From NCBI GenBank assembly GCA_946185185.1, contig CAMHIV010000001.1, positions 1 through 56,264 on the forward strand: 56,264 bases of DNA. Direction: 5' to 3'. The stretch comes from an uncultured Treponema sp. GTDB taxonomy: Bacteria; Spirochaetota; Spirochaetia; Treponematales; Treponemataceae. The translations under genes were made by a program, and so were the position numbers. Below are positions 6,311-24,326 of the stretch, piece after piece (position 1 is the stretch's first letter; each line of letters begins with the position of its first letter). The notes beneath the pieces are model-generated. The model saw only the letters and a list, made by a program, of their open reading frames with translations. It made no database searches and had not been told where the DNA came from.

Positions 6311-6439
6311 AAAAAGGGATGTTCAATAGGTAAGTAGTGCGGTGGTTGAGCCTGTCGAAACCACTGTGCATAGTTGTTTGAGGTCATTTCGACAAGCTCA
6401 ATGACCGTGTGCAACGAACTTATTCGACATCCCTTTTTT
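6311..6439. terminator. Long bidirectional terminator-like stem enclosing a REP doublet
   Basis: AAAAAGGGATGT (6311-6322) pairs with ACATCCCTTTTTT near 6427-6439. Confidence 0.65.
6340..6407. repeat. REP-like inverted doublet of 23-bp units
   Basis: CGGTGGTTGAGCCTGTCGAAACC at 6340-6362 (+) and CGGTCATTGAGCTTGTCGAAATG at 6385-6407 (-). Confidence 0.9.
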
Positions 6440-12360: not shown

Positions 12361-12374
12361 AATTACCTCGCCTT

Positions 12375-12421
12375 GTGGTTTCGATTGCCCTTCGAGAGCC
12401 TCAGGGACCGCCCAACCACCG
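12375..12421 (-). repeat. Nested REP-like element
   Basis: Outer GTGGTTTCGATTG...CCCAACCACCG interrupted by the 23-bp unit CCCTTCGAGAGCCTCAGGGACCG (12388-12410). Confidence 0.85.
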
Positions 12422-15107: not shown

Positions 15108-15173
15108 GTGAAAGCAAAGGTTATTGACAGTGAAAGCAACGGTCATTGACAGTGAAAGCAACGGTCATTGAGG
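15108..15173. repeat. 22-bp tandem repeat, about 3 copies
   Basis: GTGAAAGCAA(A/C)GGT(T/C)ATTGACA at 15108, 15130 and 15152; the third copy runs into a REP unit. Confidence 0.9.
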
Positions 15174-15248
15174 TTCTCGAAATGACCACGCTGCAAAAAA
15201 AACGGTGGTTTCGGTACTTCGACAAGCTCAGTAACCGCGCAACCACCG
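15162..15248. repeat. REP-like inverted doublet, second member nested
   Basis: CGGTCATTGAGGTTCTCGAAATG at 15162-15184; outer GGTTTCGG...CGCAACCACCG enclosing TACTTCGACAAGCTCAGTAACCG (15215-15237). Confidence 0.88.
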
Positions 15249-15259
15249 TTATTTATTCG

Positions 15260-17623
15260 TTAACAGATTTCGCAGTTATCTGATTTTACAGTTGTAATTG
15301 CTTTGCCGTCGGCAACGAGTTTTACACCGGCAATCTGGGCTGTATGGTCTTTGATTTCGTAGTAACACTTGCAGAACTTGTCGATGTCGATTTTTGCCGG
15401 CTTCTGGAACGATGGATCTGCGCCTTCAAGAACAACTGGTGTTCCGGCTGCAGCCCAAGGAGCTGTCAAAAGTTCAACCTTTTCTTTTCCGTCTTCTGTG
15501 TAATCTGCAGCAAGAAGCATACCGCGGCTTTCAATGCCCTTCATCTTACGTGGAGCAAGGTTAGAAGCAATGATTACGTGCTGACCAAGAAGTTCTTCTT
15601 CTTTAAGATATGGGCGCAAGCCTGACTGAATGATTCTGTCTTCTCCAGAACCGTCATCCATTGTTTCAATATAAAGCTTGTCGCCCTGTGGGTTTGTTTC
15701 TACCTTTTTGATTACAGCAACCTTGAGTTCAACGTGTTCATTAAAGTATGCAGCCTGGTCTTCTGCAAACTTAGGACCTTTTTCCTGAGCAGGAGCTGGT
15801 GCTTTTGGTGCAGGATTTTTTGCAGCAGGTTTTTCTTCTGCTTTAGGTGCTTTCTTTTCTGTTTTTGGAGTAAGCGCCATAAGTTCTTCAAGGTCAAGTT
15901 CGCCACCAATAGCAGGAACTGTGATATTCCAGTTTTCAAGAACCTGTGGATGGATTTCGCCGAATACACCAACCTGTTTGCCGCCTACAGTTACAGCTGC
16001 CTGACGTCCAGGAATAAAGCGTGCATCGTTTGATTCAACAACTTCATATTTGTGATCAAGGAAGTAAAGCAAAGAAGAAACTTCTGCGGCGGCATTGTTA
16101 AAGTTAGCGCCGGCACCAGCTGTTACAAAGCCCATGCACTGTCTTGTGCGTGTACCTGTATTTTCTTCTTCACAAAGATAAGCAACCTTACCGATTTCAA
16201 AAATCTTATGTGGGTAGATTGCGTTTGCCGACTTGCTTTCTGCGCGAAGAAGGCTGCTCAAAATGTCAGAGCGTACAAACTGATAGTTTTCGCTCATCGG
16301 ATTGGCAATTTCAATTACGCGTGCAGGATCAATAAGCATGTTGTCAATAAAGTCTTTCTTTGAGCCGACATAGTTAAAAATCATTTCCTGATAGCCAAGA
16401 CCAACCATCAAAGTTTTTGCCTTGCGTGAATAGTAAGTGATTGGAAGAAGGCGTCCGATTGTAAAGTCATTTGGAGTTTCAGGAGTATAAGTTTCAAGCT
16501 TAGTTCCAATCATAACGTCTTCAATGATGTCTACTTCATGAAGGAAGTCGTTGCGGTATGGAGCCGGGCTGAGAGTAAATACAGAATCGTCATCAACTGA
16601 GCCAGAACCGGTGGTTGAGCTTGTCGAAACCACAACTTTGCTACCCATGCGTGTAAGAGCGTCTACAATTGTTGCATCGTCAAAGTTTGTTCCCAAAAGC
16701 TTATTGATGTGCTTGCGTGTTGCCTTTGTTGTTGGCTGGAAGTAGAACGGAGCAACAACGTTTTTGCCAAAGCAAGTGTCATAAGGATGGCGAACTTCAA
16801 CTGGTTCAATTGAATAACCGCAGTCAGCAAAATCACAAGCAACGATGTTTGCTGCGAGCATAAGGTTTTCCATGTTGTCGCCGGTAAGTTCTACCATAAG
16901 GCCTGTGTCGCCAACCTGTACGTTACCAAGAGTAGCGCTGTTGATGATTGGTGCCATAGAAAGAACTTCGTTTGTATCGTCTGTAAAAAGAGGGAATTTT
17001 TTCAAATCCTGAATAATCCAGCCGAAATCCTTTCCTTTTGGATGTTCTGTCAGAATCTGGCGGCAAGTCATTGGCTGTTCAAAAGTCAAAGGAACAAATG
17101 AAGTCTTGTCCGGGTCTACAGCCTTGTAATGGCAAGGGAATTTGATTTCAGAAACGCGGTAAACGCCCATAGAAATAGACTTGCGTTTGCGTCCAAAGTT
17201 CCAGCAGAGTTTTTCCTGAGTCTGGATGATGTCTTTGAGCATAGGATCGTCGATTGCTTTTCCATTGATTATGAAAGCAACCATGTATGGGCGGATATCT
17301 TTAAGTTCCGGGTCAACTGTAACATAGCGGCCCTTTGTGTCTTTAACGTTGTCTTTTGTAGAAAGGAATGCAGAATAGTCAGTTCCTTTTACACCGCGGT
17401 GAAGTCTGAGCTGGCGTGCAACACCATTTGTAGACCAAAGGTCAGGGCGGTTTGTATCGTTCAATTCGATTTTGATTACGCGTTCGTTTTCTGGCTGTGT
17501 TGTATCAGGCTTTTCATCAAGTTCAGCCTTTGCATATGTAAGTTTCTTTTCAAGTGTTTCGTAGTCGTATTTTTTTTCAAGGAGATTAAAAAAAAGCTGT
17601 TCGTTAACTTCAATCTTTGGCAT
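15260..17623 (-). CDS. pheT: Phenylalanine-tRNA ligase beta subunit (archaeal/spirochete type) with C-terminal tRNA-binding OB domain
   Basis: IELNDTNRPDLWS, QEKLCWNFGRKRKSISMGVY, PYRNDFLHEVDIIEDV, FGEIHPQVLENW; then a K/A/P linker and NLAPRKMKGIESRGMLLAA. Confidence 0.93.
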   Translation of the reverse strand: MPKIEVNEQLFFNLLEKKYDYETLEKKLTYAKAELDEKPDTTQPENERVIKIELNDTNRPDLWSTNGVARQLRLHRGVKGTDYSAFLSTKDNVKDTKGRYVTVDPELKDIRPYMVAFIINGKAIDDPMLKDIIQTQEKLCWNFGRKRKSISMGVYRVSEIKFPCHYKAVDPDKTSFVPLTFEQPMTCRQILTEHPKGKDFGWIIQDLKKFPLFTDDTNEVLSMAPIINSATLGNVQVGDTGLMVELTGDNMENLMLAANIVACDFADCGYSIEPVEVRHPYDTCFGKNVVAPFYFQPTTKATRKHINKLLGTNFDDATIVDALTRMGSKVVVSTSSTTGSGSVDDDSVFTLSPAPYRNDFLHEVDIIEDVMIGTKLETYTPETPNDFTIGRLLPITYYSRKAKTLMVGLGYQEMIFNYVGSKKDFIDNMLIDPARVIEIANPMSENYQFVRSDILSSLLRAESKSANAIYPHKIFEIGKVAYLCEEENTGTRTRQCMGFVTAGAGANFNNAAAEVSSLLYFLDHKYEVVESNDARFIPGRQAAVTVGGKQVGVFGEIHPQVLENWNITVPAIGGELDLEELMALTPKTEKKAPKAEEKPAAKNPAPKAPAPAQEKGPKFAEDQAAYFNEHVELKVAVIKKVETNPQGDKLYIETMDDGSGEDRIIQSGLRPYLKEEELLGQHVIIASNLAPRKMKGIESRGMLLAADYTEDGKEKVELLTAPWAAAGTPVVLEGADPSFQKPAKIDIDKFCKCYYEIKDHTAQIAGVKLVADGKAITTVKSDNCEIC
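16609..16631 (+). repeat. REP-like unit inside the pheT coding sequence
   Basis: CGGTGGTTGAGCTTGTCGAAACC, 22/23 identical to the 6340 unit; read as V-S-T-S-S-T-T-G in PheT. Confidence 0.9.
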
Positions 17624-17665: not shown

Positions 17666-17745
17666 CGGTCATTGAGCTTGTCGAAATCTGTTTATGTTGC
17701 GAAGGCAACTTCTTTAATATGTGGTTTCGAGAGCCTCAACCACCG
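17666..17745. repeat. REP-like inverted doublet in the pheT 5' UTR
   Basis: CGGTCATTGAGCTTGTCGAAATC (17666-17688, +) and CGGTGGTTGAGGCTCTCGAAACC (17723-17745, -); flanked by the direct repeat TGAGTTCATTATT. Confidence 0.88.
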
Positions 17746-19901: not shown

Positions 19902-20816
19902 ATGAAGAGTACAAAAGTAATTGCAGCTTGTGTTCTTGGAATTTCATTTTCAGGATTATTCTGCAGCTGCGGAAACAAAAAAAAGGATGTTAAAGCAAAT
20001 AATGAACCTGTGGAAACAGTATTTGCGGTAAGTACTTATAAAGCGGTTCCTCGCACATTGGATAATTACCTTGAATTTGGCGGAAACGTTCAGACTTCTT
20101 CAAGTGTTGATATTTTCCCGGATGTGCAGAGCGGTAAGCTTTCTAAAATCAATGTAAAAGTCGGCGATAAGGTAAAAAAAGATCAGGTTGTAGCACTTGT
20201 TGATGCCAGCCGCGCCGGAATGGATTATCAGTCCAGCCCGATTAAAGCTCCTGTTGAAGGAACAATTACATCTTTCCCATATAGCGTTGGTGCAACAGTT
20301 GCGGCTTCTATGTCTGTCGGAAAAATCAGTTCAACTGGAACTTTGGAAATTAAAACAAATGTTGCAGAACGATTCTTGAGCCGTGTAAAGATGAATCAGC
20401 GTGCCGAACTTACTTTTGATGCTTATCCGGGAGTTGTGTTCCCTGCAAAGCTTGTTGAAATCGATCCAATTCTTGATGTAAATACACGAACCCTTGGAGT
20501 AAAGCTTATTCAGACTCCTAGTGATTCAAGACTTCGTGCCGGAATGTATGCGCGAATCAAGTTGATTACAGATACAAAGAAAAACACAATCGTAATTCCA
20601 CACAATGTAATCGTTCGCCGAAATGAACAGGATATTGTTTACATTGTAGATACTCTTACAAATACCGTAAAAGCTAGTCCTGTAAAACGCGGTATCCGTG
20701 TAGATGATAAGCAGGAAGTTGAAATGGGAATCACTCCAGGTGATCTTGTTGTAATCAAGGGACAGGCACTTCTTTCTGATGGTGCAAAGGTTAATGTAGT
20801 TTCAATTGATGAATAG
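19902..20816 (+). CDS. RND efflux periplasmic adaptor (MFP) lipoprotein
   Basis: Lipobox CSCG, VKVGDKVKKDQ lipoyl half, IKAPVEG, LRAGMYA. Confidence 0.9.
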   Translation: MKSTKVIAACVLGISFSGLFCSCGNKKKDVKANNEPVETVFAVSTYKAVPRTLDNYLEFGGNVQTSSSVDIFPDVQSGKLSKINVKVGDKVKKDQVVALVDASRAGMDYQSSPIKAPVEGTITSFPYSVGATVAASMSVGKISSTGTLEIKTNVAERFLSRVKMNQRAELTFDAYPGVVFPAKLVEIDPILDVNTRTLGVKLIQTPSDSRLRAGMYARIKLITDTKKNTIVIPHNVIVRRNEQDIVYIVDTLTNTVKASPVKRGIRVDDKQEVEMGITPGDLVVIKGQALLSDGAKVNVVSIDE

Positions 20817-20921
20817 CGGTGGTTGAGGAACTCGAAACCACCATAATAAGGTCATTTCGACAAGCCCTTCGATACGCCCTTCGACAAGCTCAGGGACCAC
20901 TCAGGGGTCACTCAATGACCG
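20817..20921. repeat. REP-like doublet with a triply nested member
   Basis: Unit at 20817-20839; then GGTCATTTCGACAAG[CCCTTCGATACG[CCCTTCGACAAGCTCAGGGACCA]CTCAGGGGTCA]CTCAATGACCG. Confidence 0.92.
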
Positions 20922-20939
20922 TAGCTTTGGGAGATTCAA

Positions 20940-23900
20940 ATGTCTATTTCTAAATTTGCTGTAAAAAGGCCAACAATGATTCTTATCATTTTTATGCTTT
21001 TGACGGCACTTGGTATTTATTGTACAGTTTCGCTTCCGGTTGATATGTATCCGGAAATGGATATTCCGTACATTCTTGTTTATACAAATTATTCTAACGC
21101 TGGTCCGGAAGAAGTAGAAAGGAGCGTTTCGCGTACGCTGGAAAGTTCCTTGTCAGGTGTTTCCGGTTTGAAAATGTGTAAATCTCGTTCTCAGACGGGT
21201 GCAAGTATTATCATCATGGAGTTTGAGTATGGAACAAACCTTGATGCGGCTTCTAATGAAATTCGAGATAAAGTAGATATGGTGCGAAACTATCTGCCGG
21301 ATGATGCAGATTCGCCGATTATCTTTAAGCTGGACCCTTCCATGATGCCGATTATGCATCTGGTTGTAACTGGGGTGCGAACTCCGGAAGAGCTTAGTTC
21401 TTATGTTGAAGATATTATTCAGCCTCGCCTTGAACAGGTAGACGGCGTTGCTTCTGTAACTGTTGTTGGTAACCGTGAAAAAGCAATTGTAATCGATGTT
21501 CCTCGAGACCGACTGGATGCTTATGGGCTTACATTCTCAAGTATCGCTCAGACAATCGGTATGCAGAACATTACAAGTTCCGGCGGTACAATTGAGCAGG
21601 GGGATTCCAATTATTCTATTTCTGCAGAAGGTACTTATAAATCTGTAGAGGATGTAAAAAATACTGTAGTTTCTCAGCCACGCAAGGCTAACGGCGATAA
21701 AGTTGATGTTCTTTTGCGAGATCTTGCAAATGTATATGAAGGTTACAAGGATACAACCAGCCTTGCTTACTACGGTGATAAACCTTCTATTCTTTTACTT
21801 ATAACAAAACAGTCTGGAAAAAACACTGTAGAAACTGCAAAGAAAATCCGCAAACAGATTCCGGAAATCAAAAAGACTTTGCCAACTGACGTAGAATTGG
21901 TAGAAACTGCAAACAATGCGGATGATATCAACAACACAATCAAAACTGTAGTAAACTCGTTGCTTCAGGGTATTGTTCTTGCGGTTGTAATTCTTTATAT
22001 CTTCCTGCGTTCGTTTAAGAGTACATTTATCATTGCGCTTGCGATTCCAATTTCTGTAATCGTAACTCTTTGTCTCATGTATTTCTGCGGACTATCAATC
22101 AACATGATGACTCTTTCTGGTTTGCTTTTGGGTATAGGTATGCTTGTCGATAACTCAATTGTAATCCTTGAAAATATTTTCAGTTACCGAGAGCGTGATG
22201 CAAAGCCGGAAGTTGCAGCTGTCCTTGGTTCGGAAGAAATGCTTGGTTCCATCACAGGTTCTACTCTTACAACAATTTGTATCTTCCTTCCAATGGTTAT
22301 GCTCAAAACTATGCTTGGTATGATGGGACAGATGTTTATTGCCTTTGCATTCTCTATTATCTTCTCTTTGCTTTGTTCGCTTGGAGTTGCAGCAATCTTC
22401 GTTCCGGTTCTTTCTTCTAAGTATCTTGTAATTGGAAAATCTTCTACGATTTCAAAGAATAAAGTTGCAGCGGCTTTTGACAGTCTTATGGGAAAATTCT
22501 TTACATGGCTTGATAACGTTTATGCTGCAGGAGTTCGCAAGGTATTGCATCATCGAAAACTTACAATTCTTGTGGTTGTAGGATTATTTATTGCTTCGAT
22601 TTATGGAGTTACTGTAGTTGGATTTATCTTTATGCCGGAAGTTCCTTCTACACAGGTTATTGTAGATTTGAGTATGCCTAAGGGAACTACAATCGATGTT
22701 ACTCGTGAAGTTATTTATCAGATGAAGGAAAATGTTCTTCCTGAGCTTAAGGGGGTTAAGTTTACGACAACTTCTGTCGGTGGCTCAAACATGCTCAGCA
22801 GTGCTTCGGATTCGAATACTGCAGAACTCACAGTTACGCTTTATAATGAAAATGAACGTGAACCGGGTTGGGATAACGAAGAATCAGCAAAAGAAAAGTT
22901 CCGAAAATATTTTTCATCGTTCCCTGGCGCTGAATTCACTTTTGGAACCGGAAACATGAATCCTACTCAGTCTGCAATTGATGTAGTTGTTCGTTCTGAT
23001 AACCTTGATTTGGCGCGAACTACTGCCCGGGAAATTCAGCAGATTATTAAAGATTATGCTTCGGATTATGTAAATGAAACTACAATCGATCTTGAAGACG
23101 GGCTCCCGGAACTCAAAATCAACATGGATCGAAACCGCATGTATGAGCTTGGGATAAACGCATATTCTGCCGGTACAGAATTGAATGCCGCAATCAATGG
23201 TAAAACTGCCAGCCGCTTTGATGATCACGGTACTCAGATTGATATGATTGTTCGCCTTGATCCGGCCGATAAACAGAAGTTTGCCGATTTGGAACAGCTT
23301 TATGTTATGAGTTCAACCGGACAGCGAATACCGTTTGCAAGTTTTTCACGCTACGAAGAAACATTGGCTCCGGTTCAGATTCGCCGCGAAAGCCAGACAC
23401 GAACCATTCGTATTTCTTTGCAACCAAAGAAAGGCTTCTCTCTTAATGTTGTTCAGCAGAATGTTGATAAGGTAATTCGAGAACATATTATCCAGGATGA
23501 AAACGTAATTATTTCTTATGACGGTTCATACAAGGACATGGTTGAAGCAATTCAGAAATTCTCCGTTGTAATCATTATGGCGGCTTGTCTTGTATTTGCG
23601 GTAATGGCAAGTCAGTTTGAATCGTTTAAGGATCCGTACATCATCATCTTTACAATTCCACTTTCATTTATCGGGGTTGTATTGATTTACCTTCTTACAG
23701 GAACAATGATGAACGTTGTATCTGTTGTAGGTATGCTGGTATTGGTAGGTACAATCGTAAATAACGGTATCGTTCTTGTAGACTACACGAACCTGCTTAG
23801 AAAGCGAGGTTATAATCTTGAAGAAGGTTGTGTTGAAGCGGCTCGTAACCGTCTGCGACCAATTCTTATGTCTACGCTTACAACAATTTGTTCTCTTATT

Positions 23901-24326
23901 CCTATGGCATTCTTCCCAGGTGAAGGTGGAGCAATGACTCAGCCGATTGGACTTACAGTACTTGGTGGTATGAGCTTTGGTTCTCTTATGACATTGTTTG
24001 TAATGCCGGTAATTTATTACAACTTCAATATCAAGCGTGAACGTAAGATTGTAGAAGAAAGAGCTCGCGAAAAGCTTGAGCACAGTTTTATCGATGATGA
24101 AGAATTTGTAGAAAAAGAAATCTTTAAGACTAGTGAAAAACCTGTTGCAAAAGAAGTTGAAAAAAAGCCGGAAATCGTGCAGGTTCTTGCGGAAAAGGCA
24201 AAGGCTCCTAAGCCGAAGCGCCATAAGGATTTTGCAAAAAAACTAAAGGAACTTCAGACTGCTTTGGCAGATGTTACTGAAATGATTACAAGCGATAATC
24301 AGGAAGGTGAAAATGAAAAGAATTGA
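20940..24326 (+). CDS. RND efflux permease (AcrB/AcrD/AcrF family)
   Basis: GMLVDNSIVILENI, VNNGIVLVD, RLRPILMSTLTT; 12-TM layout plus a charged C-terminal tail. Confidence 0.95.
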   Translation: MSISKFAVKRPTMILIIFMLLTALGIYCTVSLPVDMYPEMDIPYILVYTNYSNAGPEEVERSVSRTLESSLSGVSGLKMCKSRSQTGASIIIMEFEYGTNLDAASNEIRDKVDMVRNYLPDDADSPIIFKLDPSMMPIMHLVVTGVRTPEELSSYVEDIIQPRLEQVDGVASVTVVGNREKAIVIDVPRDRLDAYGLTFSSIAQTIGMQNITSSGGTIEQGDSNYSISAEGTYKSVEDVKNTVVSQPRKANGDKVDVLLRDLANVYEGYKDTTSLAYYGDKPSILLLITKQSGKNTVETAKKIRKQIPEIKKTLPTDVELVETANNADDINNTIKTVVNSLLQGIVLAVVILYIFLRSFKSTFIIALAIPISVIVTLCLMYFCGLSINMMTLSGLLLGIGMLVDNSIVILENIFSYRERDAKPEVAAVLGSEEMLGSITGSTLTTICIFLPMVMLKTMLGMMGQMFIAFAFSIIFSLLCSLGVAAIFVPVLSSKYLVIGKSSTISKNKVAAAFDSLMGKFFTWLDNVYAAGVRKVLHHRKLTILVVVGLFIASIYGVTVVGFIFMPEVPSTQVIVDLSMPKGTTIDVTREVIYQMKENVLPELKGVKFTTTSVGGSNMLSSASDSNTAELTVTLYNENEREPGWDNEESAKEKFRKYFSSFPGAEFTFGTGNMNPTQSAIDVVVRSDNLDLARTTAREIQQIIKDYASDYVNETTIDLEDGLPELKINMDRNRMYELGINAYSAGTELNAAINGKTASRFDDHGTQIDMIVRLDPADKQKFADLEQLYVMSSTGQRIPFASFSRYEETLAPVQIRRESQTRTIRISLQPKKGFSLNVVQQNVDKVIREHIIQDENVIISYDGSYKDMVEAIQKFSVVIIMAACLVFAVMASQFESFKDPYIIIFTIPLSFIGVVLIYLLTGTMMNVVSVVGMLVLVGTIVNNGIVLVDYTNLLRKRGYNLEEGCVEAARNRLRPILMSTLTTICSLIPMAFFPGEGGAMTQPIGLTVLGGMSFGSLMTLFVMPVIYYNFNIKRERKIVEERAREKLEHSFIDDEEFVEKEIFKTSEKPVAKEVEKKPEIVQVLAEKAKAPKPKRHKDFAKKLKELQTALADVTEMITSDNQEGENEKN

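Follow-up and report, generated by a model that had tools for sequence, protein, structure and literature searches.

A self-nested 23-base hairpin in a gut Treponema genome is a member of a REPIN-like family linked with a clade of GIY-YIG proteins

A hairpin of 23 bases in the genome of a gut Treponema was found within the loop of a second copy, which itself lies within a third. This three-deep nest is genuine and not a product of chance, and its units are members of a REPIN-like family with ties to a clade of GIY-YIG proteins distinct from Ssn. Two 23-base units may well have been put sequentially into the loop of a third family member after nicking by such a GIY-YIG protein. The window, that is, the whole stretch of DNA analysed, comprises 56,264 nucleotides, and positions without a contig name refer to it. 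A sequence-only reading of the window had described the nest and proposed, among other checks, a genome-wide pattern search, a comparison of filled and empty alleles and a search for enzyme genes flanked by the units.

The nest and its alleles

The nest and its surroundings consist of the following features:

20817..20921, no strand: whole inverted hairpin doublet, REPIN-like, CGGT tags outward, between the HlyD-type and AcrB-type genes
20817..20842, minus strand: left arm, long-stem unit of the GGT type
20850..20864, plus strand: right arm, which is the outer host, with CAT stem; 5′ half
20865..20876, plus strand: middle 23-nt unit with CCC stem; 5′ half
20877..20899, plus strand: inner, intact 23-nt unit with CCC stem
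20900..20910, plus strand: middle unit, 3′ half
20911..20921, plus strand: outer host, 3′ half
19902..20816, plus strand: upstream flanking gene, HlyD-type membrane-fusion protein (context only)
20940..24326, plus strand: downstream flanking gene, AcrB/AcrD/AcrF efflux transporter (context only)

Excision of 20877-20899 left a 23-nt unit (20865-20876 joined to 20900-20910), and when this middle unit was excised as well, 25 nt identical to 6382-6406 remained. Both junctions are G^CTCA, the orientation is the same and there is no duplication. In all these points the sequence-only reading was exact, including its coordinates. Absent from it was the fact that the host is one arm of the inverted doublet. 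The inner and middle units, both with CCC stems, differ from each other in loop and tail.

Single contigs from the public runs X1, X7, X9 and X12, one of which may be the source of the assembly itself, crossed the nest without gaps, and the nest is therefore not an assembly artefact. A contig of run X3 spans it with gaps (gap places among the matches listed), the contig of X5 breaks at the nest and X17 has no coverage of it. Those runs which hold the stretch and bear a habitat label are animal gut metagenomes.

The allele comparison yielded an empty site. A 12-kb contig of run X16 from a 98%-identical strain (18 differences in 941 flanking bases) lacks the doublet and carries 19 other letters where 20816-20925 stands in the source genome. 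At the doublet site, 154 unrelated letters stand in an X9 contig of a more distant kind, and none of 15 orthologous loci has a unit in the 170 nt preceding the start of the AcrB-type gene. The whole doublet, as an insertion at its site, is what varies between strains; a given site may carry or lack a doublet, and the same holds for the gene cassettes. A partly filled allele, with the doublet but fewer inserts, was not seen among the matches listed for 8 of the 19 runs holding the stretch.

The hairpin family and its insertion points

The family has the consensus abc-TTCGA-N4-CTCA-rc(abc)-ACCR. The proposed genome-wide search was carried out on the 2.39-Mb assembly and yielded 152 core matches; in 117 of them, representing 10 stem types, the two sides of the stem are fully complementary. 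Chance does not account for these units, since three Markov simulations produced 6, 13 and 11 cores, none of them with a perfect stem. Long-stem members form tag-outward doublets in which each arm folds separately with an 11-nt loop. After computational removal of the short-stem units, all 24 doublets had their tags outward and none inward. Target duplication at the doublets was not in excess of shuffled flanks (none at 19 of 24, with 18.3 expected). One doublet subfamily (contigs C1, C19, C25, C95, C108, C139 and C221) has a common spacer of ~34 nt with its own small palindrome, which shows that doublets were copied in their entirety. The 23-mer of the CGGT strand was computed to form a 4-bp hairpin with a 4-nt 5′ tail at about -1.6 kcal/mol. 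No Rfam family matched the window at the gathering score, and one hit at E=6 was at chance level.

Further members in the window are:

6340..6407, no strand: unfilled doublet whose right arm (6382-6406) equals the restored outer host of the nest
12388..12410, plus strand: insert with CCC stem; its GGT host (12374-12421) lacks one loop letter
15215..15237, plus strand: TAC-stem insert in a GGT host (15204-15248) without four loop letters
16609..16631, minus strand: single unit, in frame within pheT
17666..17745, no strand: doublet without inserts, its arms separated by a long spacer

The inserts at 12388-12410 and 15215-15237, which the sequence-only reading had also listed, are real and both lie directly before the equivalent of CTCA. 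The partner arm of the 15204-15248 host is located at 15162-15187 on the minus strand. At 15108-15200, a 22-nt tandem (15108-15151) that is polymorphic among strains is made up of part of the left arm, and 22, 44 and 85 nt are missing there in X7, X3 and X5, respectively. The unit in pheT is situated in a variable loop which is 4-12 residues longer than in seven of nine orthologues, three residues longer than in the eighth and shorter than in the ninth. A phage search with this pheT stretch gave no match.

All short-stem units (CCC, TAC, TCC, CAC, ACC and TGT stems; 22-23 nt by construction) were excised, and the rejoined flanks were scored against the unit profile with the 99.9th percentile of random junctions as null. 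A host was restored above this null in 32 of the 46 insertion events (51 units), which bears out the claim that loops of family members receive the 23-nt unit and that no duplication results. One event had a 5′ half only and 13 had no scored host, some of them because of excision order or decay. No host letter is missing in 26 of the 32 cases; the insert length was thereby confirmed independently of the search pattern. The insert has the orientation of its host in 31 cases and is inverted in one. Counted from the start of the host, the offset is 12 in 18 cases, 8 in seven, 11 in six and 14 in the inverted one, and 21 of the 32 inserts lie directly before the loop CTCA (three of the offset-11 cases have a host one letter short). 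The offset follows the host loop, with 12 in CAAG/CAGG loops, 11 in two GAG/GGG hosts and 8 in others, and the hosts retain their own loop letters despite the insert. Thus, the fixed insertion point that had been claimed holds for the nest with its two G^CTCA junctions, but over the whole genome there is a preference for positions that bracket the variable loop of 4 nt and no fixed site.

Stems are heterologous at most nests, with CCC or TAC in GGT, CAT and GAT hosts and TAC in CCC hosts. The stem types of the inserts (CCC, TAC, TCC, CAC) are almost never those of long-stem hosts in this genome. Two nests with different hosts carry an identical insert, and tandem arrays of units also occur outside clear hosts. 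Products of slippage exist as well, namely, three tandem 12-nt 5′ halves at one site and, in relatives, repeats of a 9-nt tail.

The composite seen most often in ten repeat-rich relatives has its insert at offset 9, and five host letters are missing. In the loci of relatives, the three letters that precede the insert of this five-base-replacement composite are identical for 23 of 33 nested CCC units. A short empty host that matches it was found in none of five genomes, which indicates that the bases were replaced and that the composite was then copied whole. A strictly fixed and precise site is contradicted by this dominant replacement and by the three same-orientation offsets described above. 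Nests also adjoin genes of the GIY-YIG clade in Chloroflexota and other taxa. At four loci of Chloroflexota and Bacteroidota (L076, L097, L102, L104), a unit was apparently inserted within TTCGAA palindromes, a further type of target.

A nest scan of metagenomes gave mostly chance matches (98 of 117 without an inner stem and seven with a host arm) and was excluded from the offsets. The proposal that every 23-mer is a REP with a 7-bp stem minus three bases holds, with the bases in register, where the host is of the GGT or CAT type. Among the free CCC units of relatives, however, pairing of two to three of these bases in register was seen in only 11 of 38, and the proposal is retained as a matter of geometry alone.

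A GIY-YIG gene between hairpins

The search for flanked enzyme genes led to a short GIY-YIG gene (~93 residues, PF01541 match) that lies directly between hairpins in relatives. In GTDB genomes, 80 of 93 distinct genes of this clade lie no more than 300 nt from a hairpin (on both sides in 55 genes, on one side in 25 and on neither in 13), while at control positions 1 kb away none of 62 had it on both sides, four on one and 58 on neither. The nearest units have their tags outward in 34 of the 55 genes flanked on both sides, as in the doublets, and this is the commonest arrangement there. Of the 234 flanking stems, 202 are perfect, and these comprise 21 types. The clade occurs in Spirochaetota, Bacteroidota, Chloroflexota, Ignavibacteriota, Calditrichota, Verrucomicrobiota, Margulisbacteria and others. 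In the active site, Y16, G18, R26, H30 and E63 are the same in all 93 genes, and none of these positions had entered the search patterns. The clade is a putative site-specific nuclease of single-stranded DNA.

The 30 Treponema loci of the clade represent eight genomic contexts. With the gene called present at E<1e-35, and with kinship ignored, the median over the 250 genomes of the genus was 61.5 units for the 30 that carry the gene and 1 for the 220 that do not. At least 100 units were counted in 10 of 30 genomes with the gene and in one of 220 without it. Genomes with only other small GIY-YIG genes (26) did not differ from those with none (194), both with a median of 1. The position of the gene between hairpins and the way in which repeat abundance tracks it make the clade nuclease the likely mover, as a candidate. 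In several genomes of Treponema, the units immediately next to clade genes have CCC stems; insert and enzyme therefore belong to one hairpin family.

The sequence-only reading had found no candidate enzyme in the window, and none was found in the assembly either. The clade gene was not detected in this genome (112 pattern matches, 85% complete assembly) nor in the relative G193 (178 matches, 77% complete). The best tblastn hit for a remnant had an E-value of 0.08, and two sites at which relatives carry the gene, serC-serA and comM-tRNA-Leu, are empty of it. The only GIY-YIG match in the genome is a frame of 657 aa, which is probably UvrC judging from its size. The interval from serC to serA, which in relatives is the place of the nuclease cassette, contains a single-copy GC-rich palindromic stretch of 200 nt of a different kind (contig C170, 5086-5285). 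In five Treponema genomes (loci L121, L122, L131, L132, L134), the serC-serA cassette has no stop and reads in frame through the downstream hairpins. These cassettes run into what we take, from the sequence, to be a D-3-phosphoglycerate-dehydrogenase-like (serA) gene, resulting in frames of 504-540 aa. In a subclade of the nuclease (L022, L041, L045, L046, L059, L127), the 4-nt loop of the flanking units is replaced by an inner hairpin of 13-20 nt, which shows that the loop tolerates extensions.

The best PDB matches of the clade are two UPF0213 proteins. In a quick tree of 119 proteins, a branch of 2.15 (SH-aLRT 99) stood between it and an Ssn-like group of 21 members; three of the 21 Ssn-like members are SRM-flanked, and YazA stood on a long branch without a settled place. 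The clade looks UPF0213-like and separate from the Ssn-like group, and the split in the tree together with the structural matches points away from membership in cd10448. NCBIfam gave no family above its cut-off.

The system resembles Ssn (SsnA, cd10448; NTS/SRM) in its single-domain GIY-YIG gene of ~93 residues and its tagged flanking hairpins, which are also dispersed in the genome. According to the parts of the study that were covered, SsnA cuts single-stranded DNA upstream of its hairpin and tolerates loop extensions, and an IS-like origin of Ssn was proposed by the authors (Chenal et al. 2025, PMC11893778). The Treponema hairpin differs in its tag, which is CGGT and not CGTC, and none of the 117 units matches the degenerate SRM pattern as seen in that study, with four SRM matches in the whole genome. 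Self-nesting and demonstrated mobility are not described in the sections of PMC11893778 covered here. Ssn-like genes also occur in Treponema (L327, L328, L329, L331), with GTCA-tagged hairpins that share the TGAG...TCGAA core, which suggests that the two repeat families are related.

With REP/REPIN-RAYT, as far as described in the portions of Bertels and Rainey 2011 (PMC3116915) consulted, the family shares inverted doublets with a variable spacer, an extragenic location and the absence of target duplication. Both also have a gene for an enzyme between copies of the repeat and, as putative intermediate, a hairpin with a 5′ tail. The family differs in that the enzyme is of the GIY-YIG type and not a Y1 HUH transposase, and in that each arm folds on its own. 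Unlike REPs, for which excision of singlets was not found in the consulted portions of PMC3116915, the single 23-nt unit appears mobile. The system works like Ssn/NTS and REPIN/RAYT but departs from each of them in a defining feature. CGTC/GTAG-tagged REPs are palindromes that form dimers, some of them within other palindromes, according to the part seen of Di Nocera et al. 2013 (PMC3733652), and the CGGT tag sets the present family apart from them. Neither the core letters nor Treponema were found in the text or the four supplements of that paper, with the consensus figures outside the search. The literature covered, that is, without subscription journals and figures, held no description of the hairpin-nuclease pair or of its nesting.

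How the nests may have formed

The best reading is a REPIN-like system with a GIY-YIG nuclease in which the 23-mer is patched into nicked loops, and we infer its mechanism as follows. The hairpin-gene-hairpin cassette would be the autonomous element. The doublets would derive from it by lacking the gene and would stand to it as REPINs do to RAYTs. The small single-strand nuclease would nick folded DNA. The 23-mer of the CGGT strand, folded into its 4-bp hairpin with the 4-nt 5′ tail, would be freed or copied between two nicks, and host polymerase and ligase would join it into a host loop that had been nicked once or twice. A single nick would result in a clean insertion and two nicks in the replacement of the intervening bases. 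Every insert would supply a fresh loop, and nesting could recur. Composites would then be copied whole, with slippage as a secondary editor, and the clade gene may have been lost from the lineage or be missing from the 85%-complete assembly.

Five-base replacements without a short empty host fit nicking and patching better than precise strand transfer. Its weak points are that GIY-YIG enzymes hydrolyse DNA and cannot rejoin it, and that a cut like that of SsnA would be expected at the outer tag and not in the loops, which does not account for loop targeting. The failure to detect the clade gene in this genome and in G193 despite their many units, the 13 events with no scored host and the lack of a partly filled allele among the matches listed also count against it. 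That a UPF0213-like GIY-YIG hydrolase without transposase chemistry mobilises the cassettes as well as a free 23-nt single-stranded hairpin, which is captured in loops of its own family, is put forward only tentatively.

Homing by gene conversion or template switching, in which host repair would copy the insert from a filled copy via the shared arms of 11-12 nt and a nuclease would supply the nick at most, is somewhat unlikely. It requires no integrase and accounts for the exact length, the missing duplication, the common orientation and the recursion. Near-identical composites that recur within and across genomes, such as the 23 of 33 nested CCC units in relatives, and the identical insert in two nests with different hosts are also in line with it. 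The offsets, however, vary with the host loop and the hosts keep their own loop letters, one insert is inverted and tandem arrays occur outside clear hosts. The origin of the first filled copy would still have to be explained.

The SDRs of Nostocaceae, which Elhai et al. reportedly described in 2008, are said to be 21-27 nt long, with a predicted hairpin, precise insertion without duplication and self-nested arrays. By this definition the 23-mer is alike, as a hairpin in the same size range that nests in its own copies without duplication. We know of no enzyme assigned to SDRs. The host here is a spirochaete and not a cyanobacterium. In five Nostocaceae plasmids, used as a proxy, the core was not enriched (11 matches compared with 31 in the control), a result that is uninformative on SDR identity. 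SDRs are also cited in PMC4390886 and PMC5861425. A general route for tiny hairpins of this sort, possibly via RNA and independent of GIY-YIG, with the enzyme moving the doublets only, is distinctly improbable. It would agree with insert stem types that are almost never long-stem hosts in this genome, with abundant nests where the clade gene is missing and with the precise insertion of SDR5 into HIP1 reported in a passage of PMC4390886; against it stands the direct flanking of clade genes by CCC-stem units in several Treponema genomes.

The sequence-only reading had favoured an HUH/Y1 transposase (RAYT or IS200/IS605 TnpA) acting in trans by precise strand transfer. This is largely refuted already and has little probability left. 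The missing target duplication and the REPIN-like architecture agree with it, as does the likeness of hairpin and 5′ tail to the putative REPIN intermediate in the portions of PMC3116915 consulted. PF01797 (Y1) was, however, found in none of six repeat-rich genomes (the present one and five relatives, one of them 99% complete), and the gene between the hairpins encodes a GIY-YIG protein. One fixed target tetranucleotide is also at odds with the variable offsets and the five-base replacements. The family is unlike IS200/IS605 in the same respects, with no Y1 gene, four offsets and five-base replacements in relatives. Replication slippage of hairpin halves alone is the least probable origin of the nests, since the tandem 12-nt halves, the 9-nt tail repeats and the polymorphic 22-nt tandem show that slippage happens, but insert stems differ from host stems at most nests, as the sequence-only reading had argued, and even the CCC-in-CCC pair differs in loop and tail, by which slippage is ruled out as sole cause.

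To our knowledge, the copying of DNA elements of 20-27 bases has been an open question since the cyanobacterial SDRs were described. The hairpin is among the smallest candidate mobile DNAs, with the clade nuclease as its likely, candidate mover. The family offers a candidate enzyme of 93 residues, its cognate hairpin, mapped insert ends and loop positions and a natural empty allele, by which the question can be reduced to an oligonucleotide assay. If a UPF0213-like hydrolase does mobilise both the cassettes and the free 23-mer, bacteria would have a further, new class of mobile element, and self-nesting repeats of SDR size would have been assigned an enzyme for the first time. The family would also provide a widespread UPF0213-like clade with a function and extend the site-specific nucleases of single-stranded DNA beyond Ssn with a new recognition hairpin, and REPIN-like systems would have arisen with a second class of enzyme.
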